Shown here: positions 6,660 through 61,609 of the stretch, one piece after another
How the letters are laid out: each line of letters starts with the position of its first letter
How positions within the stretch are numbered: the stretch's first letter is position 1
Source: Eledone cirrhosa
Taxonomy: Eukaryota
Reading direction: 5' to 3'
Assembly: GCA_964016885.1 (NCBI GenBank)
Contig: CAXHJY010001475.1
Location: 1 to 61,609, forward strand
DNA length: 61,609 nucleotides
Notes under the pieces: generated by a model
What the model was told of the DNA's origin: nothing
What the model saw: only the letters and a program-made list of their open reading frames with translations
Database searches by the model: none
Translations under genes and position numbers: made by a program

Positions 6660-7260
6660 ACGAACCACACACTGGCAGCGTTACCGCGGGTGATAGCGAG
6701 GCTAAGGCGCTGGAACAACCAAGCAACCCTCGCGGGCATCACCTGATACATCGGTAAGGCGAGCCACCAACGATGACAAAAACTTGTTGTCAGCGGCCCA
6801 GCTCCTCCAAACGTCTCAAACACCACAGGTTGGAAAAAATAGTTTGTCGACAATTCCCAGTATTTAAATTTTTTTCTATTCCATTCGGCTACGGAAGCAG
6901 TGACCCTCACATTTATCGCACTATCCAAGATTTGCGAAAGAGTGAAAGAGTCACTGACTGTGACATCCTAAATGAGACATCTACCTCATACTGAGGGACA
7001 AAGGGTAAGACTATCTGATCTCTTCCCATCAATTCTGGACAATCCAGCCGGCACCAGAATTGAGCGGATATTTACCAGAGTCAGGGCCCGCTTAATAATT
7101 AAATTTAGCTCGGTATGGCGAGCAAAATTACCAGCATTCAGGCGGCACGACAAACTATAGAGGTCTGTGGAGTCAAAAGGACATTTTAGTCCCCACAGAC
7201 ATGCATATCAGAGATCACCTTCTGGCGATTTAAGTAGCACCATGTCATTTGCAAATTTCA
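6660..7260 (-). pseudogene. CRE-clade-like non-LTR retrotransposon 3' fragment (zinc knuckle + restriction-like endonuclease)
   Basis: Minus-strand translation LSCRR..AGNFARHTELNLIIKRALTLVNIRSILVPAGLSRIDGKRSDSLT...VVFETFG...WLFQRLSLAITRGNAASV is the typical CRE RLE C-terminus; frameshifted. Confidence 0.8.
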
Positions 7261-7289
7261 GCCGACTGATCGTACACTCGCTGGTCTTG

Positions 7290-7610
7290 ATACCTCTTCC
7301 AGCCTGGTTGCGTATATCAATTCTCTTCACGAAGATTGTGAACAGGTGAGGTGATACCTTTGGCGAAGTTAGTCACCCACATTGAATAGCTTCGACTTAG
7401 AATAATTCATCCAAACATAAATACTAGGGTATTCGTATAGGGATTTCCGGGCAGCAAGAAGCTGTCCATTGATCCTATACTCTTGCAGAACCTTCCACAA
7501 CAGGTCCCGTGGAACGCAGTCATGTCTTTTCGAGGTCCACGAAACACGCATACATCTTTTGGCAATACTCACACGGTTGCACACAGAGTGAATATTTGAG
7601 AGTCAAAAAT
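7290..7610 (-). pseudogene. RT fragment of a second RTE-like family
   Basis: VDLEK..DCVPRDLLWKVLQEYRINGQLLAARKSLY resembles the RT segment DLEKAYDRVPR..LW..L..YG....L..AIKSLY. Confidence 0.7.
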
Positions 7611-8480
7611 GGGTCGTTTTTATTACCCAAAAGATGCGAAAAGCAAACTTCTTAGACGATTTTTTTCTGTTTTTCGATCAATTTGTCTCACTCACTTTTC
7701 AAGCTTCTTCGACTCAAATGTTCAGAAATTGTTCCAATGCTTACATCTAGCTCTTCTGTAAGATATCAAACAATTGTGTGTTGGAATTTTTTAAACTAAT
7801 GTTGCACTGTACATTCATTAACACTACATTGGCCTCAAATTTCATTGATGTTTCTACCCATTTGTGCAGCACTACGGCCGAGTTTAAACTTATAGAAATA
7901 AATTTGGCGAAAATCTTATTTTGGCATTTTAATTTCAAAGATCTGAAATAGATTCTAATGAAAGAAATAAAATAGAATAAGCTTTAAAATGATAAAAAAA
8001 TTTGATTGATCCTTGATATCAGGAAGGCATTTGAGGCTTGGGAGCCGGAAGTGCAGATGAGGTCTTGCTAGAAGTGAGGAACCAATGACGCCCCATCGGA
8101 AGTGTAGGCTGAAAGGGGACGCTAGGAACGAGTTTGGGGACTGTCTCTCTCCTTCTTGAGCCATATTTAGCGGCAAAGTGTAGACGTTCTATATTGATTG
8201 GTGCGAATGAGTGTGTGAATTTGGTTATGCTCTCTGGCCAAACGCGAAACAAGTCAGCATCTCACAGGGAGATTTAGTCCGGACACGTGTGAAAACGCAA
8301 AGGTAGATTCCTTCACTTCTTTCGATACCTCACTAAATGGTTAAAAAAAAAGAAAAAAACACCATAAAAACCTGCCGATGATAGAAGTAAAGAGAAACAA
8401 GAAATCGGCAAAATTTTGCTCTCTAGCCAATTCCCTATAACTCGCTTTAGATGTCTTTAGTAGTATCTAAACAAACTGGT

Positions 8481-8772
8481 CAGGCCGGTCGCCAGGTTTT
8501 GCTGTTCGGGGTGGCACTCTAATTCTCTAAGGAATTTTTTGACCAGCTTCTTTGGTTAATTTTTTGCTTGTATTTTTAAAAATTATTTTTTGTAGTTTAT
8601 TCTTGTTTTGAGAGAAAAAAGTTAATCAAGACGTAAAAGAACATATTTCAGAACGTTTAAAACATTTTTCTTTCATAAACTTCATTTGCTAAATCTGAGG
8701 GTGTACCATTGAAAAGTATAATATAATATATTGCCGTATAATATCCCCCACTCTTCTCTGGCGACGGTCATG
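8481..8772. mobile_element. hAT-type MITE
   Basis: Imperfect TIRs caggccggtcgccag / ctggcgacggtcatg, flanked by a near-identical 8-bp duplication aaactggt / aaattggt. Confidence 0.7.
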
Positions 8773-9486
8773 AAATTGGTCAATGGAAATAGTGCCAAGT
8801 ATCCAGATTTACGTACGGCACACCCATCTGCGAATCTCAACTAGCCGTTTGACCAACTTGCCTACGTGCTATATGTCTACTCTATCAAGGATGACATAGA
8901 GCTACGCAACGACAACAGCACGTTTTGACCAAGCTGTGTTGTTTAGCTGCATCGAACAGTAGCACAACTATATTTAGAAATAAAAACAGAGTGAGGGAAA
9001 AAGATAACGTTGAGGGAAGTTAGTGAATGAATTGATGAACGAATGAATGAATGGACAGATAGATGAACGACAGGGTGGATGGGTGGATCAATTGGAGGTT
9101 GAATGAAATAAACTACTAAGACGAGAGAGAGAAAGCAAATATATTGAGATAGTGTTGGAAAGATATTAAAATAAAGATATTTGAGATGGAGTAATGAAAG
9201 AAATTGGAAGAAAGAGAGAGATTGTATGAAAGAGAAAGGTACTGAGAAGATATAGAATATTAAAGAGGAAAGTATAGGAATACAAAAGAGAGACGAGAAA
9301 AATAAAAATCAGAGTAACATATATATAAAGTGTGAGAGAGAGAATGTGTGTGTGGAACGCAGAATTAGAGAATGGACGAGAAAGATGATGGAAGACATGT
9401 GTATACGATATATTAACAAATGGAAACTATATTTATAAAACCATATTTATTTCATTTTACATATTTTCAAGGACACCAAGTTAAAT

Positions 9487-9945
9487 CGAATCGTGGTCTT
9501 GGCTACAGAGCCGACGAAGGCGGAGGAACTGGAAGTAGAGTATGGAGAGTTTGGTGTGGGTTGGATGAGAAGAGGTGAAGTCGAGGTAAGAGTAGGAGTT
9601 AGTAGGTTTATAGAATATATATAGTTGTCCCCTGGGGGATTACGTTCCTAGAGCACCCGCGAAGAGCGAAAAACCGCGAATATTGGACGTGGTCCATAAA
9701 AATGCCAATAAACGTTAAAACATAATGTAAAATATAGGCCGGCAAATACGGTATATTGTTACTAATAATTTAGCGTTAAAAAGCGGGAAAAAATATATAT
9801 GACCACGGAAAAAGACAAAAATCGCGGAAGATATTTACGATTCTGCGAATATGTGGTGATTTCCACGAACAATTATTAGTTAGGTTCTAAGGAAAATTCC
9901 GCGAATAACCGGGACCGCGAATGCTGGGGTACACTATATATATAT
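9487..9945. repeat. Left arm of a ~450-bp inverted duplication (partner 12975-13434); includes a pogo/Tigger-like MITE at ~9622-9935
   Basis: Near-exact reverse complement of 12975-13434. MITE terminus ccgcgaatgctggggtacacta lies in a TA run. Confidence 0.85.
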
Positions 9946-14671: not shown

Positions 14672-14713
<42 letters not shown>

Positions 14714-14716
<3 letters not shown>

Positions 14717-15806
14717 AAACAAAATGAAAACGAAATTTCATTTCTCACTCTTAGTATGGCACTTACTTAAATGTAAGTATGCATGTATACGTACATACAT
14801 ATATGTATACAGACGTACAGTAGCATGCACATATATATATATATATACATATATACATACATATGCATACAGGTACACATACATATATGCACGTATCAGT
14901 TTAGCGGCGCTAACGTCGCTTTGTTCGTTTGTAAACAAACTGAACAGCCTGAATTTATGCCATACGGTGTTAAGGCAACCACGTCACCTTTTTGTTCAAC
15001 ACTGACACAGGAACGATGTACTAGTTTCAAGCTTGTTAGCTATCATCAGCACCGTTTACCCATCTGCCAGATAGTTGAACGTTCGAAAGTATATACTTTC
15101 CTTATGAAAATTAACGGCTGAGCAGCCTAATTTGCATATTGAGTGAGTTAAATCGGTCAGGCATACCGAAAACGATAAATTGAAACAAAATGAAAACGAA
15201 ATTTCATTTCTCACTCTTAGTATGGCACTTACTTAAATGTAAGTATGCATGTATACGTACATACATATATGTATACAGACGTACAGTAGCATGCACATAT
15301 ATATATATATATACATATATACATACATATGCATACAGGTACACATACATATATGCACGTATCAGTTTGGCGGCGCTAACGTCGCTTTGTTCGTTTGTAA
15401 ACAAACTGAACAGCCTGAATTTATGCCATACGGTGTTAAGGCAACCACGTCACCTTTTTGTTCAACACTGACACAGGAACGATGTACTAGTTTCAAGCTT
15501 GTTAGCTATCATCAGCACCGTTTACCCATCTGCCAGATAGTTGAACGTTCGAAAGTATATACTTTCCTTATGAAAATTAACGGCTGAGCAGCCTAATTTG
15601 CATATTGAGTGAGTTAAATCGGTCAGGCATACCGAAAACGATAAATTGAAACAAAATGAAAACGAAATTTCATTTCTCACTCTTAGTATGGCACTTACTT
15701 AAATGTAAGTATGCATATGTATGTATATATGTATATATATATATATATGTGCATGCTACTGTACGTCTGTATACATATATGTATGTACGTATACATGCAT
15801 ACTTAC
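14714..15806. repeat. 466-bp tandem duplication (2 full copies + partial third) followed by a ~100-bp inverted copy of part of the unit
   Basis: ORF starts recur at 14724/15190/15656. One visible difference between the copies (tttagcgg vs tttggcgg). ~15706-15806 is the reverse complement of unit sequence. Confidence 0.9.
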
Positions 15807-22323: not shown

Positions 22324-22858
22324 TCATCATCATCATTTTACGTCTGCTTTTCCCTGCTTGCAAGGGTTGGATGGGTCCTATTCAGCACAGCATCTCTCTA
22401 CTTGTCACGCTCCTTCGTCATCTCCACAGTGAGCTTCAGCTATCTGAGGTCTGCTCTCACCACCTTCGCCCATGTTTTTTGTGGTCTACCTCTACTACGT
22501 CTTCCTTCAACTGGCATTTCTTCACCCATCGGTCATCCTCCATGCGCATCACATGTCCATACCATCGCAGTCTCCTCTCCCGCACACAACAATTTATCCC
22601 TCTCAGACACAGTTTCTCTCTCAATACATCCATGCTCGGCCGTTCACGCACATTGACACTGCACATCTAACAGAGCATGCTTGCCTCATTTCTCTCAAGC
22701 CGTCGCATATCCTCTGCAGTTGCTGCCCATGTCTCACTACCATGCAGCATCGCGCACCTCACACAGGCATCATATAACCGGCCTTTCGTACGCAGGGAGA
22801 AACCCTTCGTCAGCAGAGGAAGCAGCTCCCTAAACTTCTTCCAACCCATCCTTATTCT
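22324..22858 (-). mobile_element. 5'-truncated RTE copy (C-terminal coding region + tail)
   Basis: RIRMGWKKFRELLPLLTKGFSLRTKGRLYDACVRCAMLHGSETW...RLRWYGHVMRMEDDRWVKKC; catcatcatcat tail at ~22325-22337. Confidence 0.9.
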
Positions 22859-23134
22859 ATATATATAATGATGAAACACACCATCATATTGGCTACTGTC
22901 TGGTTTCATGCTCAAACAGACAAATTTAGTAGAGGTAATATATCTCTTTATCTGTATAGAATTTATCTGGTCTTTATGTTTACATATGGCTGATTTGAGG
23001 AAATTATACATATGTAAATATAAAGGTCTAATGAATACTGAACTGATAAAGAAATATATTATTTCTAATTCGTTTGAGGAAGTATGAAACCAGATGAGAG
23101 CCAATATAATGTTGTGGAACATCATTATTATGTA

Positions 23135-27189: not shown

Positions 27190-28123
27190 CAGCAAGTGCC
27201 CACAGAATACTAGCTCATTCCATTGCACAGATGGTTCTATAGAAATAGTGGACAGCTTCCGTTACCTGGGTGACAAAATCAGCAGTGGGGGAGGGTGCTC
27301 TGAAAGTACAGTAGCTAGAGTCAGAACGGGATGGAAAAAGTTCAGAGAGCTTATACCACTATTAGCCGCTAAAGGGTTCTCTCTAAAAAGGAAAGGCAGG
27401 CTGTACGATGCCTGCATACGAACATCAATGTTGCATGGCAGTGAGACCTGGGCATTGTGTGCAGAGGATCTATGCAGACTGGAGAGAAACGAAGCTTGCA
27501 TGCTCCGCTGGATGTGTAATAGTAATATACATGAACGGCAAAGCATAAACGAACTAAGGGAGAAATTAGGAATAAGAGGGATCAGATGTTGTTTACTCGA
27601 AAGACTACGTTGGTACGGTCACGTGATACGCATGAAAGACAACAGCTGTATAAAAAAGTGCAGGGCGATAAAAATAGACGGTAGCCACGGAGTAGGCAGA
27701 CCCAGAAAAACCTGGGACGACTTGATAAATTCCGACCTCACACACTTACACCTCTCCAAGACAATGTCACTGGACCGAGATCTTTGGCGCTACAGTTATA
27801 CAGAAGACCCGCTTTACCTAAGTACAAAGCGAAACCTACAGTCAGTAGGCACCTCTAACAAAATATACCTCCGTCCCACTACCCCCACCCCATCTACACC
27901 ACCCCCTTAAATATGAAGTTATGTTGGTACCACAACATCCAGTCCAAAACAAATGAGGTCGTGTAGGTGTCACGACAATAAAACACACAGTCCACGCTGT
28001 AATGTGGCCGTGTAGGTAACACGGTAAAAACCTCCCAGTCCACACTGTAAACGTGGTTGGTGTTAGGAAGGGCATCCAGCCATAGAAAACCCGCCAGACA
28101 GTCCTGAGCAAGACAACCAATCT

Positions 28124-32940: not shown

Positions 32941-32956
32941 AACATATGGTCTCTGT

Positions 32957-33436
32957 GAAGTGGTTGTGTAGGTGTCACAACAAAAATCACCCAGCCCACA
33001 CTGTAAAGTGGTCGTGTAGGTGTCACAACAAAAATCACCCAGCCCACACTGTAAAGTGGTCGTGTAGGTGTCACAACAAAAATCACCCAGCCCACAGTAA
33101 AGTGGTTGTATAGGTGTCACAACAAAAATCACCCAGCCCACACTGTAAAGTGGTTGTATAGGTGTCACAACAAAAATCACCCAGCCCACAGTAAAGTGGT
33201 TGTATAGGTGTCACAACAAAAAGCACCCAGCCAACACTGTAAAGTGGTTGTGTAGGTGTCACAACAAAAAGCACCCAGCCCACACTCTAAATGTGGTTGG
33301 CATTAGGAAGGGCATCTGGCTGCAGAAACCTAGCCAGAAACAGTTCTATATGGGCAAGGCACAGTCACCTGATCCCGAACCTGTCTAACCCATTCTAGCA
33401 TGGAAAATGGAGATTAAACAATGATGATGATGATGA
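32957..33436 (+). repeat. RTE 3' UTR fragment with 7 tandem 46-48-bp units, then the conserved end and (GAT)n tail
   Basis: Unit gtaaagtggtYgtRtaggtgtcacaacaaaaaKcacccagcccaca(ct) x7 at 32957-33286, then ttaggaagggcatc ... gcatggaaaatgg..ttaaac atgatgatgatgat. Confidence 0.9.
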
Positions 33437-44689: not shown

Positions 44690-44920
44690 TTTGTGTCAGG
44701 TAAAAGTACCACAGACGCTCTTTTCCTTGTACGACAACTACAGGAGAAGTACCTAGCTAAAAGTAAACCACTCTACTTAGATTTTGTAGAGCGGGAGAAA
44801 GCCTTTGACAGAGTCCCCCCACTCCATTATCTGGTGGGCTCTTAGAAAACTAGGTGTAGATGAATGGCTTGTGAGAGCTATACAAGCTATGTATAAAGAA
44901 ACAGTCAGTAAGGGTAGAAT
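44690..44920 (+). pseudogene. Older RTE RT fragment of the same family, opposite strand, ending at the full-length element's tail
   Basis: Translates to GKSTTDALFLVRQLQEKYLAKSKPLYLDFVEREKAFDRVP (frameshift) IIWWALRKLGVDEWLVRAIQAMYKETVSKGRI, closely matching the intact ORF. It stops exactly at the (tca)n tail. Confidence 0.92.
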
Positions 44921-45221
44921 TCATCATCATCATCATCATCACCGTTTTACGTCCGTTCTTCCACGCTAGCATGGGTTAGACGGGTTGTCCTGTTGTGGGC
45001 AGTGTCTGGTCGGCTGACCATGCCTTGCTCATACAGGAACTGATCTGGCTTGATTTCTACAGCTGGATGCCCTTCCTAACACCAACCTCATTTACAGTGA
45101 GTGCTGGGTGCTTTTTCGTGGCGCCTACACGTCCACTTTACAGTGTGGGCTGGGTGCTTTTTTGCCGTGGCACCTCCACGACCACCTTGCGGTGGGGGGG
45201 GGGGCATATTGTTTATATGCT

Positions 45222-48200
45222 TCAGCATGTACCCATGGGAGGTCGGGTACCCTGTATTACTGCGTGACGCCAGAAGTCACGGTCGTGTGTCATTGACTTT
45301 GAGAGGTGTAGTTGGGTAAGGTCGGCTTTTATCACCTCATCCCAAGTCATCTTGGGTCTCCCCACTCCGCGGTTTCCATCAACTTCTAGTGCTCTGCACC
45401 TTTTTATGCAGCTGTCATCCTTCATACGCATCACATGTCCATACCAGCGTAACCGCCTCTCCTGCACGCAGCATTTGATTCCTCTTATGCTCAGTCTCTC
45501 TCTCAATTCATTTATGCTTTGTCGTTCACGTATATTACTGTTACACATCCATCGGAGCATGCAGGCTTCGTTTCTCTCTAATCTACGTAGGTCTTCCACC
45601 TTCAGCGCCCAGGTCTCACTACCATGCAACATCGCTGTTCGGATACACGCATCATACAGTCTGCCTTTCATTCTGAGGGAGAAGCCTTTTGCAGCTAGCA
45701 GTGGTAGTAGTTCCCTAAACTTCTTCCATCCCGTTCTTACCCTAGTTATTGTACTTTCTGAGCACCCACCTCCGTTGCTAATTCGGTCACCTAGGTAGCA
45801 GAAGCTGTCTACTGTTTCTACAGGGCCCTCCCAGAGATTGGTGGTACTTGTTTCCTGTGGCTGTTTGCTTGCTGTTTCAGCACAGCTGCTGCATGTGAAT
45901 CCTACATTCTTAATTAAGCTTCCTGAGATCCCGCTACATCTCTTGTGTACCCATTGTTTGCATTTGGGGCAAAGAATGGAGTTCCTACCTACACCTTTCC
46001 TACATACTGAGCAAGGCCATTTCCCTGAGGGGATCTGGGTTCTGTTTTCTCGTCTACTTATAAGGACCTTAGTCTTTGTCATGTTGACTTTGAGGCCCTT
46101 TCTCTCTAGTCCCTGCTTCCAGGTTTGGAATTTATTCTCTAGTTCTACCATAGATTCAGCTATGAGTGCGAGGTCATCAGCATACAGGAGTTCCCATGGG
46201 CATCCGGTCTTAAACTCCTCCGTTATTGCCTGCAGGACTATGATGAACAGGAGAGGGCTAAGAACAGAGCCCTGGTGGACCCCAACCTGTACGCTAAATT
46301 CCTCGCTATACTCATTGCCAATCCTAACTTTGCTGACTGCTCCCCTATACATGGCTTGTACCGCTTTCACAAGCCATTCATCTACTCCTAGTTTTCTAAG
46401 AGCCCACCAGATTACTGCACGTGGAACTCTGTCAAAGGCTTTCTCAAGGTCGACAAATGCCAAGTAGAGTGGCTTACTTTTAGCTAGGTACTTTTCCTGT
46501 AATTGCCTCACAAGGAAGAGCGCATCAGTGGTGCCTTTCCCTGGAACAAACCCAAATTGCATCTCGTCTATATTCACCCGGTCCCTAATCAGCTGTGCTA
46601 TAACTCTTTCTGTTACTTTCATGACCTGGTCCATCAACTTTATACCTCTATAGTTTCCTCTATCTAGTGCATCGCCTTTACCTTTGTAGCAGTTGACAAT
46701 GATGCTACTGCACCAATCTTTTGGTATGGCCCCCTCTAGTATTACCTGGTTAACGATACGTGTGGTTATAGTGTGACCTACAGACCCAGATGCCTTCAGC
46801 ATCTCGGCAGCTATACCCGATGGACCGGTTGCCTTCCCTATCTTCATATCTCTGATTGCCTTACTTACTACGCTGCCGCTGACTTGTACTGCTGGTCCCT
46901 CTATAGGGTCTACGTGGGGTAGGGTCTCTTCTTCCCATGCATTCTCCTCATTTAGTAATCTATCATAATGACTCTTCCATGCATCTTTCTTCTCAGCACT
47001 TGTGAGGGCAAGCTCACCTTTATCATTCCGGATACACTTCTCTCCAATGACATCACAACTATCTCTGACACACTGCCTCGCAATCTTGAATACCTCCTGT
47101 TTCTGGTCCTCACGTTGTAAAACATGCTTGAATTTTCTATCCTCTGCTTCCCTCCTAGCTAAGTATACTTGTCGCCTAGCTTCCCTCTTGGTCTCTATGT
47201 AATGTACCCTGCTCCCCCCGTTCTTCCATTCTTTCCATGCCTGTCTCTTGGCCTTGACTGCTTCATCTACCTTATTGTTCCACCACCAAGTCACTCTCCT
47301 CCTGCTTGAGGTCTTACTCCAGCCACAAACCTCATCCGTCGCCTCTAGTAAGTTATTTTTTAGGAACTCCCAGTTCTCTTCTACGTTAAATGTCTCTATC
47401 TGTTCTTCTTTACTGTCGTAGGCGTTGAGTAAAATATCTTTAAATCTGTTACTGGTTGAGGGGACTTTCAGCTTCCAGATCTTTCTTCTCCAGGTTGGCC
47501 TCTGTTTCAGGGCTCGTCTAGTTCTGACCGTGAGGTCGCTGACAACTAAGCTATGTTGGGATGTACATTCCTCACTAGGGAAGGCTTTTGTGTTTACGAC
47601 CGTCCATCTGTCACGTCCTCTGATGAGGATAAAATCTAACTGACTAGAGTGCTCCCCTGATCTATAGGTGATCAGGTGGTTGTCGGGTTTTTTAAAGTTT
47701 GTGTTACATATCGACATGTCATTGGCGTCGCAGAATTCTAGAAGTCTGAATCCTTCCTCATTCCTTGTGCCAACTCCATGGCCTCCATGTACTCTATTGA
47801 AGCCGTCGCAGTGTTTACCTACGTGTCCGTTAAAATCTCCTGCAATGATTAGGAAGTCCTTGTCGTCTGTTAGAGCAGTAGTGTGTATTAGGGACTCGTA
47901 AAACCTATCCTTAAGTTCGTCTGGCAGCCCCGATTGGGGTGCGTAAGCTGATATTATTGTGGTAATTGTCTTATTCAGGACTAGTCTGAGTTTAATGATT
48001 CTTGCATTTACCCTGTACACTGAGATTACTTTATCTACCCACTTGTCAGCTAATAGTATACCTACACCACCCATCCCATCGTCATTTCCCACCCAGAAAA
48101 ATTTGTAGCACTGGCTTTTTCCTACAAGGACTCTAGCAGACCCTCCTCTCCATCTAGTCTCTTGCACACAGCATACATCAACTTCCTTTCGCTCTAGCAT

Positions 48201-48341
48201 TTCTACGATTTCTCCTGCTCTTCCTTTCATTGAGCCTACATTGATGGTACCAACTCGGAGTTTTGGGCATTTGTCGACACTCGTAGGGGAGGGTCTCTGG
48301 GTTGGTGCTTCACGTGGGTGCTTGGTAGCTCGCAGATTCAT
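45222..48341 (-). CDS. Intact RTE-clade non-LTR retrotransposon ORF (APE endonuclease + reverse transcriptase + PHD-like zinc finger + RTE C-terminal region), 1039 aa
   Basis: Uninterrupted ATG-started ORF. APE motifs: GTINVGSM, VQETRW, SAYAPQ, GDFNGHVG, LDFIL, SQHSLV. RT motifs: YRGIKL, QFGF, FVDLEKAFDRV, GVHQGSVLSP, LYADD, GLKVNMTKTK. RTE-type C-terminus: FCYLGD, MLHGSETW, RLRWYGHVMR, GRPKMTW. No ORF1 seen. Confidence 0.97.
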   Translation of the reverse strand: MNLRATKHPREAPTQRPSPTSVDKCPKLRVGTINVGSMKGRAGEIVEMLERKEVDVCCVQETRWRGGSARVLVGKSQCYKFFWVGNDDGMGGVGILLADKWVDKVISVYRVNARIIKLRLVLNKTITTIISAYAPQSGLPDELKDRFYESLIHTTALTDDKDFLIIAGDFNGHVGKHCDGFNRVHGGHGVGTRNEEGFRLLEFCDANDMSICNTNFKKPDNHLITYRSGEHSSQLDFILIRGRDRWTVVNTKAFPSEECTSQHSLVVSDLTVRTRRALKQRPTWRRKIWKLKVPSTSNRFKDILLNAYDSKEEQIETFNVEENWEFLKNNLLEATDEVCGWSKTSSRRRVTWWWNNKVDEAVKAKRQAWKEWKNGGSRVHYIETKREARRQVYLARREAEDRKFKHVLQREDQKQEVFKIARQCVRDSCDVIGEKCIRNDKGELALTSAEKKDAWKSHYDRLLNEENAWEEETLPHVDPIEGPAVQVSGSVVSKAIRDMKIGKATGPSGIAAEMLKASGSVGHTITTRIVNQVILEGAIPKDWCSSIIVNCYKGKGDALDRGNYRGIKLMDQVMKVTERVIAQLIRDRVNIDEMQFGFVPGKGTTDALFLVRQLQEKYLAKSKPLYLAFVDLEKAFDRVPRAVIWWALRKLGVDEWLVKAVQAMYRGAVSKVRIGNEYSEEFSVQVGVHQGSVLSPLLFIIVLQAITEEFKTGCPWELLYADDLALIAESMVELENKFQTWKQGLERKGLKVNMTKTKVLISRRENRTQIPSGKWPCSVCRKGVGRNSILCPKCKQWVHKRCSGISGSLIKNVGFTCSSCAETASKQPQETSTTNLWEGPVETVDSFCYLGDRISNGGGCSESTITRVRTGWKKFRELLPLLAAKGFSLRMKGRLYDACIRTAMLHGSETWALKVEDLRRLERNEACMLRWMCNSNIRERQSINELRERLSIRGIKCCVQERRLRWYGHVMRMKDDSCIKRCRALEVDGNRGVGRPKMTWDEVIKADLTQLHLSKSMTHDRDFWRHAVIQGTRPPMGTC

Positions 48342-48528
48342 ATTTCATCTATTGATTCAGAGTTGCTCGTGTATTCCCAGCTCATCCATCCCTAACGGTG
48401 GGAAAATTGAGGGCTAGAAGGACAGTGGTGGTGGGGTAATGGCAGGGTGTGTTGGGATGCGCCAGAGGAGGAGAGAGTTAGTTAGGCAGGTAGTAGCAGC
48501 AGCAGCAGTGGAAATGGCATGCTAGGTT

Positions 48529-48573
48529 TGATTGGTCGAATAGACTATGGTGGTGTGTGGGGGTGGGCGGGAG
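48529..48573 (-). promoter_or_regulatory. Candidate internal Pol II promoter elements in the LINE leader: CCAAT box and GC box
   Basis: gaccaatca on the minus strand (attgg at 48531-48535; NF-Y-like) and GGGCGG at 48565-48570 (Sp/KLF-like), about 30 bp apart and ~190-230 nt upstream of the ATG. Motif match only. Confidence 0.4.
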
Positions 48574-48580
48574 GGAAATT

Positions 48581-51500
48581 GTGAGGTAGGAACTGAGGGT
48601 CGCATGGTAAATATCCAAGTTAATACTACATCAGTAAAATTAACAATAATAACGTCATGAAAAAAGCTACTAAGAGAAACCCTCGAAAATTTATCGCTAA
48701 TACAGCAGGGAAAATTTATTGTGAGGTAGGAACTGAGGGTCGCATGGTAAATATCCAAGTTAATACTACATCAGTAAAATTAACAATAATAACGTCATGA
48801 AAAAAGCTACTAAGAGAAACCCTCGAAAATTTATCGCTAATACAGCAGGGAAAATTTATTGTGAGGTAGGAACTGAGGGTCGCATGGTAAATATCCAAGT
48901 TAATACTACATCAGTAAAATTAACAATAATAACGTCATGAAAAAAGCTACTAAGAGAAACCCTCGAAAATTTATCGCTAATACAGCAGGGAAAATTTATT
49001 GTGAGGTAGGAACTGAGGGTCGCATGGTAAATATCCAAGTTAATACTACATCAGTAAAATTAACAATAATAACGTCATGAAAAAAGCTACTAAGAGAAAC
49101 CCTCGAAAATTTATCGCTAATACAGCAGGGAAAATTTATTGTGAGGTAGGAACTGAGGGTCGCATGGTAAATATCCAAGTTAATACTACATCAGTAAAAT
49201 TAACAATAATAACGTCATGAAAAAAGCTACTAAGAGAAACCCTCGAAAATTTATCGCTAATACAGCAGGGAAAATTTATTGTGAGGTAGGAACTGAGGGT
49301 CGCATGGTAAATATCCAAGTTAATACTACATCAGTAAAATTAACAATAATAACGTCATGAAAAAAGCTACTAAGAGAAACCCTCGAAAATTTATCGCTAA
49401 TACAGCAGGGAAAATTTATTGTGAGGTAGGAACTGAGGGTCGCATGGTAAATATCCAAGTTAATACTACATCAGTAAAATTAACAATAATAACGTCATGA
49501 AAAAAGCTACTAAGAGAAACCCTCGAAAATTTATCGCTAATACAGCAGGGAAAATTTATTGTGAGGTAGGAACTGAGGGTCGCATGGTAAATATCCAAGT
49601 TAATACTACATCAGTAAAATTAACAATAATAACGTCATGAAAAAAGCTACTAAGAGAAACCCTCGAAAATTTATCGCTAATACAGCAGGGAAAATTTATT
49701 GTGAGGTAGGAACTGAGGGTCGCATGGTAAATATCCAAGTTAATACTACATCAGTAAAATTAACAATAATAACGTCATGAAAAAAGCTACTAAGAGAAAC
49801 CCTCGAAAATTTATCGCTAATACAGCAGGGAAAATTTATTGTGAGGTAGGAACTGAGGGTCGCATGGTAAATATCCAAGTTAATACTACATCAGTAAAAT
49901 TAACAATAATAACGTCATGAAAAAAGCTACTAAGAGAAACCCTCGAAAATTTATCGCTAATACAGCAGGGAAAATTTATTGTGAGGTAGGAACTGAGGGT
50001 CGCATGGTAAATATCCAAGTTAATACTACATCAGTAAAATTAACAATAATAACGTCATGAAAAAAGCTACTAAGAGAAACCCTCGAAAATTTATCGCTAA
50101 TACAGCAGGGAAAATTTATTGTGAGGTAGGAACTGAGGGTCGCATGGTAAATATCCAAGTTAATACTACATCAGTAAAATTAACAATAATAACGTCATGA
50201 AAAAAGCTACTAAGAGAAACCCTCGAAAATTTATCGCTAATACAGCAGGGAAAATTTATTGTGAGGTAGGAACTGAGGGTCGCATGGTAAATATCCAAGT
50301 TAATACTACATCAGTAAAATTAACAATAATAACGTCATGAAAAAAGCTACTAAGAGAAACCCTCGAAAATTTATCGCTAATACAGCAGGGAAAATTTATT
50401 GTGAGGTAGGAACTGAGGGTCGCATGGTAAATATCCAAGTTAATACTACATCAGTAAAATTAACAATAATAACGTCATGAAAAAAGCTACTAAGAGAAAC
50501 CCTCGAAAATTTATCGCTAATACAGCAGGGAAAATTTATTGTGAGGTAGGAACTGAGGGTCGCATGGTAAATATCCAAGTTAATACTACATCAGTAAAAT
50601 TAACAATAATAACGTCATGAAAAAAGCTACTAAGAGAAACCCTCGAAAATTTATCGCTAATACAGCAGGGAAAATTTATTGTGAGGTAGGAACTGAGGGT
50701 CGCATGGTAAATATCCAAGTTAATACTACATCAGTAAAATTAACAATAATAACGTCATGAAAAAAGCTACTAAGAGAAACCCTCGAAAATTTATCGCTAA
50801 TACAGCAGGGAAAATTTATTGTGAGGTAGGAACTGAGGGTCGCATGGTAAATATCCAAGTTAATACTACATCAGTAAAATTAACAATAATAACGTCATGA
50901 AAAAAGCTACTAAGAGAAACCCTCGAAAATTTATCGCTAATACAGCAGGGAAAATTTATTGTGAGGTAGGAACTGAGGGTCGCATGGTAAATATCCAAGT
51001 TAATACTACATCAGTAAAATTAACAATAATAACGTCATGAAAAAAGCTACTAAGAGAAACCCTCGAAAATTTATCGCTAATACAGCAGGGAAAATTTATT
51101 GTGAGGTAGGAACTGAGGGTCGCATGGTAAATATCCAAGTTAATACTACATCAGTAAAATTAACAATAATAACGTCATGAAAAAAGCTACTAAGAGAAAC
51201 CCTCGAAAATTTATCGCTAATACAGCAGGGAAAATTTATTGTGAGGTAGGAACTGAGGGTCGCATGGTAAATATCCAAGTTAATACTACATCAGTAAAAT
51301 TAACAATAATAACGTCATGAAAAAAGCTACTAAGAGAAACCCTCGAAAATTTATCGCTAATACAGCAGGGAAAATTTATTGTGAGGTAGGAACTGAGGGT
51401 CGCATGGTAAATATCCAAGTTAATACTACATCAGTAAAATTAACAATAATAACGTCATGAAAAAAGCTACTAAGAGAAACCCTCGAAAATTTATCGCTAA

Positions 51501-54500
51501 TACAGCAGGGAAAATTTATTGTGAGGTAGGAACTGAGGGTCGCATGGTAAATATCCAAGTTAATACTACATCAGTAAAATTAACAATAATAACGTCATGA
51601 AAAAAGCTACTAAGAGAAACCCTCGAAAATTTATCGCTAATACAGCAGGGAAAATTTATTGTGAGGTAGGAACTGAGGGTCGCATGGTAAATATCCAAGT
51701 TAATACTACATCAGTAAAATTAACAATAATAACGTCATGAAAAAAGCTACTAAGAGAAACCCTCGAAAATTTATCGCTAATACAGCAGGGAAAATTTATT
51801 GTGAGGTAGGAACTGAGGGTCGCATGGTAAATATCCAAGTTAATACTACATCAGTAAAATTAACAATAATAACGTCATGAAAAAAGCTACTAAGAGAAAC
51901 CCTCGAAAATTTATCGCTAATACAGCAGGGAAAATTTATTGTGAGGTAGGAACTGAGGGTCGCATGGTAAATATCCAAGTTAATACTACATCAGTAAAAT
52001 TAACAATAATAACGTCATGAAAAAAGCTACTAAGAGAAACCCTCGAAAATTTATCGCTAATACAGCAGGGAAAATTTATTGTGAGGTAGGAACTGAGGGT
52101 CGCATGGTAAATATCCAAGTTAATACTACATCAGTAAAATTAACAATAATAACGTCATGAAAAAAGCTACTAAGAGAAACCCTCGAAAATTTATCGCTAA
52201 TACAGCAGGGAAAATTTATTGTGAGGTAGGAACTGAGGGTCGCATGGTAAATATCCAAGTTAATACTACATCAGTAAAATTAACAATAATAACGTCATGA
52301 AAAAAGCTACTAAGAGAAACCCTCGAAAATTTATCGCTAATACAGCAGGGAAAATTTATTGTGAGGTAGGAACTGAGGGTCGCATGGTAAATATCCAAGT
52401 TAATACTACATCAGTAAAATTAACAATAATAACGTCATGAAAAAAGCTACTAAGAGAAACCCTCGAAAATTTATCGCTAATACAGCAGGGAAAATTTATT
52501 GTGAGGTAGGAACTGAGGGTCGCATGGTAAATATCCAAGTTAATACTACATCAGTAAAATTAACAATAATAACGTCATGAAAAAAGCTACTAAGAGAAAC
52601 CCTCGAAAATTTATCGCTAATACAGCAGGGAAAATTTATTGTGAGGTAGGAACTGAGGGTCGCATGGTAAATATCCAAGTTAATACTACATCAGTAAAAT
52701 TAACAATAATAACGTCATGAAAAAAGCTACTAAGAGAAACCCTCGAAAATTTATCGCTAATACAGCAGGGAAAATTTATTGTGAGGTAGGAACTGAGGGT
52801 CGCATGGTAAATATCCAAGTTAATACTACATCAGTAAAATTAACAATAATAACGTCATGAAAAAAGCTACTAAGAGAAACCCTCGAAAATTTATCGCTAA
52901 TACAGCAGGGAAAATTTATTGTGAGGTAGGAACTGAGGGTCGCATGGTAAATATCCAAGTTAATACTACATCAGTAAAATTAACAATAATAACGTCATGA
53001 AAAAAGCTACTAAGAGAAACCCTCGAAAATTTATCGCTAATACAGCAGGGAAAATTTATTGTGAGGTAGGAACTGAGGGTCGCATGGTAAATATCCAAGT
53101 TAATACTACATCAGTAAAATTAACAATAATAACGTCATGAAAAAAGCTACTAAGAGAAACCCTCGAAAATTTATCGCTAATACAGCAGGGAAAATTTATT
53201 GTGAGGTAGGAACTGAGGGTCGCATGGTAAATATCCAAGTTAATACTACATCAGTAAAATTAACAATAATAACGTCATGAAAAAAGCTACTAAGAGAAAC
53301 CCTCGAAAATTTATCGCTAATACAGCAGGGAAAATTTATTGTGAGGTAGGAACTGAGGGTCGCATGGTAAATATCCAAGTTAATACTACATCAGTAAAAT
53401 TAACAATAATAACGTCATGAAAAAAGCTACTAAGAGAAACCCTCGAAAATTTATCGCTAATACAGCAGGGAAAATTTATTGTGAGGTAGGAACTGAGGGT
53501 CGCATGGTAAATATCCAAGTTAATACTACATCAGTAAAATTAACAATAATAACGTCATGAAAAAAGCTACTAAGAGAAACCCTCGAAAATTTATCGCTAA
53601 TACAGCAGGGAAAATTTATTGTGAGGTAGGAACTGAGGGTCGCATGGTAAATATCCAAGTTAATACTACATCAGTAAAATTAACAATAATAACGTCATGA
53701 AAAAAGCTACTAAGAGAAACCCTCGAAAATTTATCGCTAATACAGCAGGGAAAATTTATTGTGAGGTAGGAACTGAGGGTCGCATGGTAAATATCCAAGT
53801 TAATACTACATCAGTAAAATTAACAATAATAACGTCATGAAAAAAGCTACTAAGAGAAACCCTCGAAAATTTATCGCTAATACAGCAGGGAAAATTTATT
53901 GTGAGGTAGGAACTGAGGGTCGCATGGTAAATATCCAAGTTAATACTACATCAGTAAAATTAACAATAATAACGTCATGAAAAAAGCTACTAAGAGAAAC
54001 CCTCGAAAATTTATCGCTAATACAGCAGGGAAAATTTATTGTGAGGTAGGAACTGAGGGTCGCATGGTAAATATCCAAGTTAATACTACATCAGTAAAAT
54101 TAACAATAATAACGTCATGAAAAAAGCTACTAAGAGAAACCCTCGAAAATTTATCGCTAATACAGCAGGGAAAATTTATTGTGAGGTAGGAACTGAGGGT
54201 CGCATGGTAAATATCCAAGTTAATACTACATCAGTAAAATTAACAATAATAACGTCATGAAAAAAGCTACTAAGAGAAACCCTCGAAAATTTATCGCTAA
54301 TACAGCAGGGAAAATTTATTGTGAGGTAGGAACTGAGGGTCGCATGGTAAATATCCAAGTTAATACTACATCAGTAAAATTAACAATAATAACGTCATGA
54401 AAAAAGCTACTAAGAGAAACCCTCGAAAATTTATCGCTAATACAGCAGGGAAAATTTATTGTGAGGTAGGAACTGAGGGTCGCATGGTAAATATCCAAGT

Positions 54501-57500
54501 TAATACTACATCAGTAAAATTAACAATAATAACGTCATGAAAAAAGCTACTAAGAGAAACCCTCGAAAATTTATCGCTAATACAGCAGGGAAAATTTATT
54601 GTGAGGTAGGAACTGAGGGTCGCATGGTAAATATCCAAGTTAATACTACATCAGTAAAATTAACAATAATAACGTCATGAAAAAAGCTACTAAGAGAAAC
54701 CCTCGAAAATTTATCGCTAATACAGCAGGGAAAATTTATTGTGAGGTAGGAACTGAGGGTCGCATGGTAAATATCCAAGTTAATACTACATCAGTAAAAT
54801 TAACAATAATAACGTCATGAAAAAAGCTACTAAGAGAAACCCTCGAAAATTTATCGCTAATACAGCAGGGAAAATTTATTGTGAGGTAGGAACTGAGGGT
54901 CGCATGGTAAATATCCAAGTTAATACTACATCAGTAAAATTAACAATAATAACGTCATGAAAAAAGCTACTAAGAGAAACCCTCGAAAATTTATCGCTAA
55001 TACAGCAGGGAAAATTTATTGTGAGGTAGGAACTGAGGGTCGCATGGTAAATATCCAAGTTAATACTACATCAGTAAAATTAACAATAATAACGTCATGA
55101 AAAAAGCTACTAAGAGAAACCCTCGAAAATTTATCGCTAATACAGCAGGGAAAATTTATTGTGAGGTAGGAACTGAGGGTCGCATGGTAAATATCCAAGT
55201 TAATACTACATCAGTAAAATTAACAATAATAACGTCATGAAAAAAGCTACTAAGAGAAACCCTCGAAAATTTATCGCTAATACAGCAGGGAAAATTTATT
55301 GTGAGGTAGGAACTGAGGGTCGCATGGTAAATATCCAAGTTAATACTACATCAGTAAAATTAACAATAATAACGTCATGAAAAAAGCTACTAAGAGAAAC
55401 CCTCGAAAATTTATCGCTAATACAGCAGGGAAAATTTATTGTGAGGTAGGAACTGAGGGTCGCATGGTAAATATCCAAGTTAATACTACATCAGTAAAAT
55501 TAACAATAATAACGTCATGAAAAAAGCTACTAAGAGAAACCCTCGAAAATTTATCGCTAATACAGCAGGGAAAATTTATTGTGAGGTAGGAACTGAGGGT
55601 CGCATGGTAAATATCCAAGTTAATACTACATCAGTAAAATTAACAATAATAACGTCATGAAAAAAGCTACTAAGAGAAACCCTCGAAAATTTATCGCTAA
55701 TACAGCAGGGAAAATTTATTGTGAGGTAGGAACTGAGGGTCGCATGGTAAATATCCAAGTTAATACTACATCAGTAAAATTAACAATAATAACGTCATGA
55801 AAAAAGCTACTAAGAGAAACCCTCGAAAATTTATCGCTAATACAGCAGGGAAAATTTATTGTGAGGTAGGAACTGAGGGTCGCATGGTAAATATCCAAGT
55901 TAATACTACATCAGTAAAATTAACAATAATAACGTCATGAAAAAAGCTACTAAGAGAAACCCTCGAAAATTTATCGCTAATACAGCAGGGAAAATTTATT
56001 GTGAGGTAGGAACTGAGGGTCGCATGGTAAATATCCAAGTTAATACTACATCAGTAAAATTAACAATAATAACGTCATGAAAAAAGCTACTAAGAGAAAC
56101 CCTCGAAAATTTATCGCTAATACAGCAGGGAAAATTTATTGTGAGGTAGGAACTGAGGGTCGCATGGTAAATATCCAAGTTAATACTACATCAGTAAAAT
56201 TAACAATAATAACGTCATGAAAAAAGCTACTAAGAGAAACCCTCGAAAATTTATCGCTAATACAGCAGGGAAAATTTATTGTGAGGTAGGAACTGAGGGT
56301 CGCATGGTAAATATCCAAGTTAATACTACATCAGTAAAATTAACAATAATAACGTCATGAAAAAAGCTACTAAGAGAAACCCTCGAAAATTTATCGCTAA
56401 TACAGCAGGGAAAATTTATTGTGAGGTAGGAACTGAGGGTCGCATGGTAAATATCCAAGTTAATACTACATCAGTAAAATTAACAATAATAACGTCATGA
56501 AAAAAGCTACTAAGAGAAACCCTCGAAAATTTATCGCTAATACAGCAGGGAAAATTTATTGTGAGGTAGGAACTGAGGGTCGCATGGTAAATATCCAAGT
56601 TAATACTACATCAGTAAAATTAACAATAATAACGTCATGAAAAAAGCTACTAAGAGAAACCCTCGAAAATTTATCGCTAATACAGCAGGGAAAATTTATT
56701 GTGAGGTAGGAACTGAGGGTCGCATGGTAAATATCCAAGTTAATACTACATCAGTAAAATTAACAATAATAACGTCATGAAAAAAGCTACTAAGAGAAAC
56801 CCTCGAAAATTTATCGCTAATACAGCAGGGAAAATTTATTGTGAGGTAGGAACTGAGGGTCGCATGGTAAATATCCAAGTTAATACTACATCAGTAAAAT
56901 TAACAATAATAACGTCATGAAAAAAGCTACTAAGAGAAACCCTCGAAAATTTATCGCTAATACAGCAGGGAAAATTTATTGTGAGGTAGGAACTGAGGGT
57001 CGCATGGTAAATATCCAAGTTAATACTACATCAGTAAAATTAACAATAATAACGTCATGAAAAAAGCTACTAAGAGAAACCCTCGAAAATTTATCGCTAA
57101 TACAGCAGGGAAAATTTATTGTGAGGTAGGAACTGAGGGTCGCATGGTAAATATCCAAGTTAATACTACATCAGTAAAATTAACAATAATAACGTCATGA
57201 AAAAAGCTACTAAGAGAAACCCTCGAAAATTTATCGCTAATACAGCAGGGAAAATTTATTGTGAGGTAGGAACTGAGGGTCGCATGGTAAATATCCAAGT
57301 TAATACTACATCAGTAAAATTAACAATAATAACGTCATGAAAAAAGCTACTAAGAGAAACCCTCGAAAATTTATCGCTAATACAGCAGGGAAAATTTATT
57401 GTGAGGTAGGAACTGAGGGTCGCATGGTAAATATCCAAGTTAATACTACATCAGTAAAATTAACCAATAACTTACCTACCCTACGTCATGAAAAAAGCTA

Positions 57501-60500
57501 CTAAGAGAAACCCTCGAAAATTTATCGCTAATACAGCAGGGAAAATTTATTGTGAGGTAGGAACTGAGGGTCGCATGGTAAATATCCAAGTTAATACTAC
57601 ATCAGTAAAATTAACAATAATAACGTCATGAAAAAAGCTACTAAGAGAAACCCTCGAAAATTTATCGCTAATACAGCAGGGAAAATTTATTGTGAGGTAG
57701 GAACTGAGGGTCGCATGGTAAATATCCAAGTTAATACTACATCAGTAAAATTAACAATAATAACGTCATGAAAAAAGCTACTAGAGAAACCCTCGAAAAT
57801 TTATCGCTAATACAGCAGGGAAAATTTATTGTGAGGTAGGAACTGAGGGTCGCATGGTAAATATCCAAGTTAATACTACATCAGTAAAATTAACAATAAT
57901 AACGTCATGAAAAAAGCTACTAAGAGAAACCCTCGAAAATTTATCGCTAATACAGCAGGGAAAATTTATTGTGAGGTAGGAACTGAGGGTCGCATGGTAA
58001 ATATCCAAGTTAATACTACATCAGTAAAATTAACAATAATAACGTCATGAAAAAAGCTACTAAGAGAAACCCTCGAAAATTTATCGCTAATACAGCAGGG
58101 AAAATTTATTGTGAGGTAGGAACTGAGGGTCGCATGGTAAATATCCAAGTTAATACTACATCAGTAAAATTAACAATAATAACGTCATGAAAAAAGCTAC
58201 TAAGAGAAACCCTCGAAAATTTATCGCTAATACAGCAGGGAAAATTTATTGTGAGGTAGGAACTGAGGGTCGCATGGTAAATATCCAAGTTAATACTACA
58301 TCAGTAAAATTAACAATAATAACGTCATGAAAAAAGCTACTAAGAGAAACCCTCGAAAATTTATCGCTAATACAGCAGGGAAAATTTATTGTGAGGTAGG
58401 AACTGAGGGTCGCATGGTAAATATCCAAGTTAATACTACATCAGTAAAATTAACAATAATAACGTCATGAAAAAAGCTACTAAGAGAAACCCTCGAAAAT
58501 TTATCGCTAATACAGCAGGGAAAATTTATTGTGAGGTAGGAACTGAGGGTCGCATGGTAAATATCCAAGTTAATACTACATCAGTAAAATTAACAATAAT
58601 AACGTCATGAAAAAAGCTACTAAGAGAAACCCTCGAAAATTTATCGCTAATACAGCAGGGAAAATTTATTGTGAGGTAGGAACTGAGGGTCGCATGGTAA
58701 ATATCCAAGTTAATACTACATCAGTAAAATTAACAATAATAACGTCATGAAAAAAGCTACTAAGAGAAACCCTCGAAAATTTATCGCTAATACAGCAGGG
58801 AAAATTTATTGTGAGGTAGGAACTGAGGGTCGCATGGTAAATATCCAAGTTAATACTACATCAGTAAAATTAACAATAATAACGTCATGAAAAAAGCTAC
58901 TAAGAGAAACCCTCGAAAATTTATCGCTAATACAGCAGGGAAAATTTATTGTGAGGTAGGAACTGAGGGTCGCATGGTAAATATCCAAGTTAATACTACA
59001 TCAGTAAAATTAACAATAATAACGTCATGAAAAAAGCTACTAAGAGAAACCCTCGAAAATTTATCGCTAATACAGCAGGGAAAATTTATTGTGAGGTAGG
59101 AACTGAGGGTCGCATGGTAAATATCCAAGTTAATACTACATCAGTAAAATTAACAATAATAACGTCATGAAAAAAGCTACTAAGAGAAACCCTCGAAAAT
59201 TTATCGCTAATACAGCAGGGAAAATTTATTGTGAGGTAGGAACTGAGGGTCGCATGGTAAATATCCAAGTTAATACTACATCAGTAAAATTAACAATAAT
59301 AACGTCATGAAAAAAGCTACTAAGAGAAACCCTCGAAAATTTATCGCTAATACAGCAGGGAAAATTTATTGTGAGGTAGGAACTGAGGGTCGCATGGTAA
59401 ATATCCAAGTTAATACTACATCAGTAAAATTAACAATAATAACGTCATGAAAAAAGCTACTAAGAGAAACCCTCGAAAATTTATCGCTAATACAGCAGGG
59501 AAAATTTATTGTGAGGTAGGAACTGAGGGTCGCATGGTAAATATCCAAGTTAATACTACATCAGTAAAATTAACAATAATAACGTCATGAAAAAAGCTAC
59601 TAAGAGAAACCCTCGAAAATTTATCGCTAATACAGCAGGGAAAATTTATTGTGAGGTAGGAACTGAGGGTCGCATGGTAAATATCCAAGTTAATACTACA
59701 TCAGTAAAATTAACAATAATAACGTCATGAAAAAAGCTACTAAGAGAAACCCTCGAAAATTTATCGCTAATACAGCAGGGAAAATTTATTGTGAGGTAGG
59801 AACTGAGGGTCGCATGGTAAATATCCAAGTTAATACTACATCAGTAAAATTAACAATAATAACGTCATGAAAAAAGCTACTAAGAGAAACCCTCGAAAAT
59901 TTATCGCTAATACAGCAGGGAAAATTTATTGTGAGGTAGGAACTGAGGGTCGCATGGTAAATATCCAAGTTAATACTACATCAGTAAAATTAACAATAAT
60001 AACGTCATGAAAAAAGCTACTAAGAGAAACCCTCGAAAATTTATCGCTAATACAGCAGGGAAAATTTATTGTGAGGTAGGAACTGAGGGTCGCATGGTAA
60101 ATATCCAAGTTAATACTACATCAGTAAAATTAACAATAATAACGTCATGAAAAAAGCTACTAAGAGAAACCCTCGAAAATTTATCGCTAATACAGCAGGG
60201 AAAATTTATTGTGAGGTAGGAACTGAGGGTCGCATGGTAAATATCCAAGTTAATACTACATCAGTAAAATTAACAATAATAACGTCATGAAAAAAGCTAC
60301 TAAGAGAAACCCTCGAAAATTTATCGCTAATACAGCAGGGAAAATTTATTGTGAGGTAGGAACTGAGGGTCGCATGGTAAATATCCAAGTTAATACTACA
60401 TCAGTAAAATTAACAATAATAACGTCATGAAAAAAGCTACTAAGAGAAACCCTCGAAAATTTATCGCTAATACAGCAGGGAAAATTTATTGTGAGGTAGG

Positions 60501-61609
60501 AACTGAGGGTCGCATGGTAAATATCCAAGTTAATACTACATCAGTAAAATTAACAATAATAACGTCATGAAAAAAGCTACTAAGAGAAACCCTCGAAAAT
60601 TTATCGCTAATACAGCAGGGAAAATTTATTGTGAGGTAGGAACTGAGGGTCGCATGGTAAATATCCAAGTTAATACTACATCAGTAAAATTAACAATAAT
60701 AACGTCATGAAAAAAGCTACTAAGAGAAACCCTCGAAAATTTATCGCTAATACAGCAGGGAAAATTTATTGTGAGGTAGGAACTGAGGGTCGCATGGTAA
60801 ATATCCAAGTTAATACTACATCAGTAAAATTAACAATAATAACGTCATGAAAAAAGCTACTAAGAGAAACCCTCGAAAATTTATCGCTAATACAGCAGGG
60901 AAAATTTATTGTGAGGTAGGAACTGAGGGTCGCATGGTAAATATCCAAGTTAATACTACATCAGTAAAATTAACAATAATAACGTCATGAAAAAAGCTAC
61001 TAAGAGAAACCCTCGAAAATTTATCGCTAATACAGCAGGGAAAATTTATTGTGAGGTAGGAACTGAGGGTCGCATGGTAAATATCCAAGTTAATACTACA
61101 TCAGTAAAATTAACAATAATAACGTCATGAAAAAAGCTACTAAGAGAAACCCTCGAAAATTTATCGCTAATACAGCAGGGAAAATTTATTGTGAGGTAGG
61201 AACTGAGGGTCGCATGGTAAATATCCAAGTTAATACTACATCAGTAAAATTAACAATAATAACGTCATGAAAAAAGCTACTAAGAGAAACCCTCGAAAAT
61301 TTATCGCTAATACAGCAGGGAAAATTTATTGTGAGTAGGAACTGAGGGTCGCATGGTAAATATCCAAGTTAATACTACATCAGTAAAATTAACAATAATA
61401 ACGTCATGAAAAAAGCTACTAAGAGAAACCCTCGAAAATTTATCGCTAATACAGCAGGGAAAATTTATTGTGAGGTAGGAACTGAGGGTCGCATGGTAAA
61501 TATCCAAGTTAATACTACATCAGTAAAATTAACAATAATAACGTCATGAAAAAAGCTACTAAGAGAAACCCTCGAAAATTTATCGCTAATACAGCAGGGA
61601 AAATTTATT
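48581..61609. repeat. Tandem array of 93 x 140-bp units, essentially identical, running to the window end
   Basis: Unit: gtgaggtaggaactgagggtcgcatggtaaatatccaagttaatactacatcagtaaaattaacaataataacgtcatgaaaaaagctactaagagaaaccctcgaaaatttatcgctaatacagcagggaaaatttatt. Length 13029 = 93x140 +11 (~57464-57483) -1 (~57783) -1 (~61335). The ORF track repeats with a 140-bp period. Confidence 0.99.

Follow-up and report, generated by a model that had tools for sequence, protein, structure and literature searches.

Tandem arrays in the 5′ region of a young RTE-type LINE of Eledone cirrhosa and a duplication-breakpoint hotspot beside its G-tract

A LINE insertion running into an array of 140-bp units

The window, that is the whole stretch of 61,609 nucleotides of Eledone cirrhosa DNA analysed here, is one complete contig (C1502) of a 3.0-Gb assembly, and its end falls within a tandem array. 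The LINE insertion from which this array extends has the following features, numbered along the window.

44690..44921, plus strand: fragment of an older RTE-like family, the insertion target, cut by the insertion and continued in frame on contig C1544
44919..44921, no strand: 3-bp target-site duplication (TSD), ATT, with its second copy on C1544 at the 5′ end of the element, an exact continuity that would link the two contigs
44922..44941, minus strand: (TGA)n microsatellite 3′ tail, carried by other copies as well
44942..45221, minus strand: 3′ UTR of 280 bp, with a G12 run on the plus strand (G4Hunter 1.92) and no tandem duplication beside that run
45222..48341, minus strand: intact single ORF of 1039 aa, with AP endonuclease (aa ~32-266), reverse transcriptase (RT; aa 557-761) and PHD finger (aa 777-820)
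48342..48580, minus strand: unique, tether-like leader of 239 bp between the ORF and the monomer region
48559..48575, plus strand: G-tract with a four-run G-quadruplex pattern on the antisense (cDNA) strand, whose folding is predicted
48579..48598, no strand: duplication-breakpoint hotspot, -2 to +17 relative to 48581
48581..61609, minus strand: array of 93 assembled 140-bp units, each joining 137 nt of native first-monomer sequence to ATT, running off the contig end

The uninterrupted 1039-aa APE-RT ORF reported in the preliminary description was confirmed, and Pfam assigned a PHD domain to it in addition to the endonuclease and RVT_1 domains. Its best match among solved structures was L1 ORF2p, and the full 1039-aa ORF is kept in 96 of the 145 copies tested, while the longest ATG-started frame in the leader and monomers is 73 aa. 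The window copy departs from the subfamily majority at only 3 positions in 3.66 kb and is, by this measure, very young, as had been proposed before. An uninterrupted paralogous copy of the target (L232), 92-94% identical to it, confirmed both the continuous target sequence and the 3-bp TSD, and a search for an empty allele of the window locus returned a single match, this being an old paralogous copy and not the empty allele. On C1544 a leader is followed by 64 units, 7.6 monomers and then the in-frame continuation of the cut RTE-like fragment, so arranged that C1544 is most likely, from its sequence, the far side of the window locus; this probable same-locus link is drawn from the exact continuity of the sequence. 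The TSD that was at first not recognised is present, since the ATT at 44919-44921 has a match at the far end on C1544.

The array was recovered by TRF with a period of 140, 93.0 copies and 99% matches, and its units are identical in 90 of 93, units 64, 66 and 92 differing by indels alone. The near-identity of the units first described is borne out, while the number 93 is an assembly count and is not reliable, C1544 showing 64 units and the window at least 93. The leader runs straight into the array as had been described, with 239 bp from the ATG to the array and no host DNA between. The amplified segment is, as suspected, native 5′ LINE sequence lying in place, but the microhomology to which its amplification had been ascribed amounts to just 1 nt, and the real junction is out of register with the resemblance of gggaaatt to gggaaaattt that had been pointed out.

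A single ORF with AP endonuclease and RT together with a microsatellite 3′ tail, (TGA)n included, are given as RTE features in the portion of PMC2887409 consulted, and the present element shares with that clade the single ORF with both domains, the (TGA)n tail and, via the inferred link of C1502 to C1544, the 3-bp TSD. The 3′ UTR of 280 bp compares with 14 bp in HmRTE-e01 (PMC2887409) and about 600 nt in RTE-2_OV of Octopus vulgaris, which is described in the available part of PMC9115989 as having 1109 aa, a zinc finger and ~600-nt UTRs. The 120 homologues listed were 45-55% identical, often had a PHD finger and carried no clade names; the RTE label is applied here provisionally, from architecture and known motifs. 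A 5′ monomer array goes unmentioned in the accessible text of the octopus RTE literature, with no match to ‘tandem’ in PMC9115989 and none to ‘monomer’ or ‘satellite’ in PMC13282606. The partly accessible literature that we searched described neither a 5′ monomer array in an RTE nor a G-quadruplex (G4) hotspot in LINE promoters.

Monomer number and array age across the family

A genome search with the 140-mer and the leader, suggested at the outset, found 137 nt of the 140-mer once, directly upstream of the leader, in 24 of 29 other leader-bearing copies, and single 137-nt copies at many loci. Its alignment to these copies indicates that the 140-mer is part of the first monomer of ~450-500 bp, a piece with newly set limits. 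Exact matches genome-wide numbered 449 for a 23-nt leader motif and 257 for the leader/unit junction; the 140-bp junction motif had 159, which are fitted by C7, C1502 and C1544 with the last 59 assigned by count. At C7 the same 140-bp junction lies at an unrelated insertion site with 18 units. Detached 140-mer arrays were not found in this search, the three junction contigs each being attached to a LINE leader. Short-read contigs of four runs list no joint in the 5′ region, and such contigs cannot show absence.

The copies examined numbered around 160 out of at least 449, with near-full sampling on C1 alone; copies L046-L060 were chosen from the best matches, some for their unusual look, and L151 and L159 stand outside all counts. 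The family monomers measure ~400-600 bp (~500 typical) and have a poly-G run at their boundary; each contains a hypervariable sub-repeat of 98 bp, and their GC content is 37%, against 34% for the 140-bp unit. Their number per copy runs from 0 to ~168. In 149 parsed copies the 5′ region has a median length of 1,021 bp, reaching at least 3 kb in 26 and at least 6 kb in 8, and the 5′ ends of insertions are spread across the whole monomer with no single start point. The analogy with mouse L1 monomers drawn in the preliminary description holds for the family, but the family monomer is not the 140-mer; the true monomers are found on the distal side of the array.

The array in the window had also been presented as a case of its own kind, and this did not survive comparison with other copies of the same LINE family, in which arrays of 14 kb (L128; about 28 monomers, 14.3 kb), at least 23 kb (L156; at least 42 monomers, 23 kb) and 63 kb (on C1, behind a copy of full length; about 168 monomers, arranged in a higher-order structure) occur. 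Shorter repeats were also seen, namely 62 bp x15 in L046, about 260 bp x21 in L058 and 98 bp x17 in L068. The window array is one point on a family-wide continuum and not a one-off fusion. Arrays leave back into native upstream sequence. Variants common to blocks mark block duplication in L091, L156 and the 63-kb array, and all 12 of the 12 monomers in L140 share a locus-private substitution. In L063 two copies are joined head to tail as a chimera, from which a further jump leads into position ~26; L086 and L160 each have two duplicated parts that are not identical. The 3′ flanks are alternating purine/pyrimidine repeats in 66 of 131 copies. The idea that host-derived arrays are created at the 5′ junction was rejected, the identical minisatellite of L047 and L048 being present on both flanks. 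Orphan first-monomer matches on C1, considered as possible G4-spanning deletions, turned out to be copies with a variant G-tract or parts of the 63-kb array.

The length of the 5′ region drops with the number of private SNPs (Spearman -0.34, p 2.6e-5, n=147), and it exceeds 3 kb in 22 of 63 copies with 0-1 private SNPs versus 5 of 84 others. Slow growth with age was discarded on this ground, long arrays being in the youngest copies. The four arrays of new units held no single-unit substitution in 24,208 bp versus 7.0 expected (P about 9e-4), while in the other young arrays of 2.5 kb or more, 32 in number, the singleton rate was 0.034% versus 0.029% in the body (p 0.51); the substitution deficit is thus limited to the new-unit and longest arrays, in a split made after seeing the data, and correction of reads or assembly can erase unit variants and homogenise arrays. 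The rate in the medium arrays fits their having been copied along with the body. For the others, the deficit of 0 against 7, the private substitution in all monomers of L140 and the block duplications together point to an expansion that was fast and accurate and that followed the origin of the private changes.

A duplication-breakpoint hotspot beside the G-tract

An automated list covering 161 copies contained ten non-native go-back junctions of more than 10 bp, and 10 of 10 land within the same 20-bp interval, at -2, 0, 2, 5, 6, 10, 12, 12, 16 and 17 relative to 48581, while their take-off points vary. All remaining non-native junctions in these copies either delete sequence or duplicate no more than 7 bp. 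Besides the window copy, nine other copies carry independent duplications landing on the same 20-bp spot. Microhomology was 0-5 nt in the 7 junctions examined and 1 nt for the 140-mer; one possible exception, L131 (148 to 46, with 6-nt microhomology), was dropped by the filter as native-like. As a control, the LINE body was scanned in 95 copies and no tandem duplication was found in 340,483 aligned bases. A rough, after-the-fact estimate places the chance for 9 of the ten landing sites at 1e-11 to 1e-14.

The hotspot adjoins the G-tract at 48559-48575, which is the sole four-run match in the element and ties for its top G4Hunter peak (2.52); in the window copy, where G is replaced by C at 48568, the tract scores 2.08, versus 2.52 for the family form. 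What is new here is that non-homologous duplication junctions of more than 10 bp cluster beside the element's only canonical G-quadruplex motif. From its geometry, the tract would sit on the strand and on the side where sense-strand synthesis stalls, as a polymerase making the sense strand reaches it right after passing from +17 to -2, and the hotspot likely marks such a DNA-copying stall. Neither the poly-G at the distal monomer boundary (2.52) nor the G12 run of the 3′ UTR has non-homologous duplications beside it; therefore, a G-tract alone is insufficient. The length of the G-run showed no correlation with 5′ length (rho 0.02, p 0.81), a weak test with one single length in 86 of 98 copies, and in 27 comparisons of sub-repeat number the proximal monomer had more than the distal one in 10, fewer in 5 and an equal number in 12. 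Back-splicing as a source of the junctions was ruled out, since the landing sites vary over 20 nt and a common splice dinucleotide is absent.

Candidate mechanisms and known systems

The mechanism that we favour, and regard as about equally apt to prove right or wrong, is that sense-strand DNA synthesis stalls at the G-tract and thereby seeds a duplication, which is then expanded in register. A polymerase making the sense strand, either in second-strand completion of the insertion or in replication soon after it, would stall just short of a G-quadruplex in the antisense template, then re-prime upstream and leave a duplication as the seed; in-register slippage or unequal exchange could then rapidly multiply the unit. 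A wider proposal, advanced tentatively and with less than even confidence, is that the LINE has a built-in amplifier. In this proposal the G-quadruplex at the leader boundary would regrow an eroded promoter array, stalling and recopying serving to restore the monomers removed by 5′ truncation at each retrotransposition, while overshoot of this regrowth would yield satellite-like arrays of 10-60 kb within very few generations and retrotransposition would spread the seeds. If true, monomer regrowth in a LINE would thereby be traced to a mapped mechanism acting in cis.

Among the alternatives, the one that fares best, though we consider it unlikely, places the junction and possibly the array at the RT step of insertion. 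Here transcripts starting in upstream monomers would end at the G-tract with RNA 3′ ends at -2 to +17, and the RT would jump from the 5′ end of its template onto such an RNA, or circle a small circular RNA. End-to-end template jumping by non-LTR RTs is established, and the same hotspot is predicted by this route. Take-off points that vary as the family's random 5′ truncation points do, long arrays in the youngest copies, the L063 chimera and the differing duplicated parts of L086 and L160 all agree with it. According to the available part of PMC10620060, daughters of mouse L1 lose monomers and L1 RT made 1 error in 33,374 bases, and array uniformity is therefore compatible with an RT origin as well. 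The exit of arrays into native upstream sequence would, on the other hand, need extra template switches, and higher-order blocks together with private variants fixed in all units argue for steps at the DNA level. An Rfam search of the leader and first monomer also returned no ribozyme or other family above chance (two chance-level matches).

It is decidedly unlikely that the arrays are an ordinary VNTR to which the G-tract is incidental, with one 140-bp duplication in a source element, retrotransposed to at least two sites and grown by unequal crossing-over. The identical junction at C7 and at the window locus is what such a history predicts, and it means that the seed of the window array may have been inherited rather than made at the locus; unequal crossing-over has been proposed for a 50-monomer mouse promoter (PMC6454616, in the part available), and growth of this kind would be compatible with the in-register expansion of the favoured mechanism. 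Left unexplained, however, are the ten independent junctions out of ten within 20 bp, and with gradual growth the older copies should have the longer arrays, whereas the observed trend is the opposite.

That a few true units were inflated by out-of-register joining of reads is very improbable. The contig does end within the array, C1544 has its 64 units at apparently the same locus beneath a leader without two SNPs of the window's leader, and the first irregular unit of the window is number 64; yet on C1544 the run of leader, 64 units and monomers, its array marked throughout by read-like indel noise, seems to resemble one uncorrected molecule, and the arrays at C7, L058 and L128, like the one of 63 kb, have flanking DNA at either end and no N. 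A long array at the window locus is very likely real and its exact count of 93 perhaps wrong; the discrepancy between 64 and 93 may arise from a difference between two haplotypes, instability of the array, a read that belongs to another locus or units assembled out of register. Chance landing beside an unrelated satellite, the condition under which the first interpretation was to fall, retains practically no probability and is refuted: the family does enter host micro- and minisatellites, as the 3′ flanks and L047 and L048 attest, but the unit belongs to the element itself, native monomers follow on from the array, and the junction matches are fitted by C7, C1502 and C1544.

A close parallel to the 5′ monomer arrays of this family is found in mouse L1Md (A, Gf, Tf) and rat L1, which likewise have tandem monomers in variable number joined to a unique tether and 5′ ends inside monomers; the tether to the ORF measures ~250 bp (PMC5381506, in the text available). 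Unlike these, the present element is of single-ORF RTE type, its arrays extend to 63 kb, and its new units and junctions arise at one mapped hotspot. Mouse-type L1 has GC-rich CpG-island monomers on two ORFs, whereas here the monomer has 37% GC and there is a single ORF, and the 5′ array would work like an L1 promoter without being one, its promoter role being putative. The accessible portion of PMC6454616 places the 50-monomer mouse promoter on record, calls the mechanism of regrowth unclear and gives second-strand priming and unequal crossing-over as proposed routes. How monomers lost at each jump are regained, a question posed by mouse L1, is made testable here by mutating one tract, and in the family there are hundreds of young copies that hardly differ, with ten independent breakpoints on a single 20-bp spot and arrays of 2 to ~168 units.

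A second parallel is offered by C. elegans dog-1/FANCJ mutants, in which G4s block nascent-strand synthesis and leave microhomology-scarred rearrangements (PMC12426944, as far as its text is available). One breakpoint fixed at a G4 barrier and microhomology at the joint are common to both systems (PMC12426944), but the worm mutant shows small deletions in the portion of that source consulted, while tandem duplications beside a predicted G4 are found here.

Satellites can derive from transposable elements, a part of a retrotransposon being built into a tandem array. In contrast to such satellites, the arrays described here stay inside intact, flanked insertions, with stages from 2 units to the 63-kb array, and detached arrays of the 140-mer at several loci, by which a dispersed satellite family would be recognised, were not encountered. 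Satellite arrays are seen forming within intact retrotransposons, and these arrays account for contig breaks in the assembly.

Monomer arrays of the LINE family

Variants of the roughly 500-bp 5′ monomers that mark subfamilies were never mixed inside any one copy (28 and 13 loci; all parsed copies), a pattern suggesting that arrays are often rebuilt from a single monomer. At G000:C1:422727000-422795000 (assembly prefix, contig and positions; stretches L209-L214 and L224-L225), a full-length LINE copy with 99.2% identity to that of the window is followed by a 63-kb array with closed flanks; its ~168 monomers measure 355 and 405 bp and form higher-order repeats. A second long array, of at least 42 monomers over 23 kb, is carried by a very young copy (L156, with L215 and L230; C2:403.817-403.844 Mb); its monomers follow a block pattern of roughly eight, and its end lies beyond.

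Insertion structure and target sites

Examination of the 3′ flanks of 131 copies placed 66 of these insertions within (TA)n-type microsatellites; such target site duplications as were recognised by eye were short. The stretch L063 (C1:8877603-8887602) holds two LINE copies arranged head-to-tail; one is truncated at position ~32 and joined to the tail of the second. The second copy in turn passes from 1.5 kb directly to position ~26 in the first monomer. The 5′ ends of L114 and L115 appear inverted.

PHD finger and repeats in the window

A PHD finger, which was annotated in many of 120 homologues among the matches listed, and four further features were located in the window:

45882-46013, minus strand: PHD finger of the LINE ORF, following closely on its RT domain
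14709-15741: 466-bp unit, 2.2 copies, 98% identity, unrelated to the 140-bp array
32953-33299: 48-bp unit, 7.3 copies, by eye resembling a short repeat of the LINE's 3′ UTR region
22667-23125, minus strand: decayed 3′ fragment of a related RTE-like element
27428-27910, plus strand: decayed 3′ fragment of a related RTE-like element

LINE pieces in runs under other organism labels

Comparison with the LINE copy L132 (positions 5745-9820) revealed near-identical pieces at low depth in three sequencing runs, X4, X5 and X7, that carry other organism labels. These pieces may reflect contamination, horizontal transfer or a related species; the greater depth at the shared 3′ repeat is consistent with contamination. 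Against the same interval, X4 showed 0 differences over 1,273 bp and X7 showed 1 difference over 2,575 bp.
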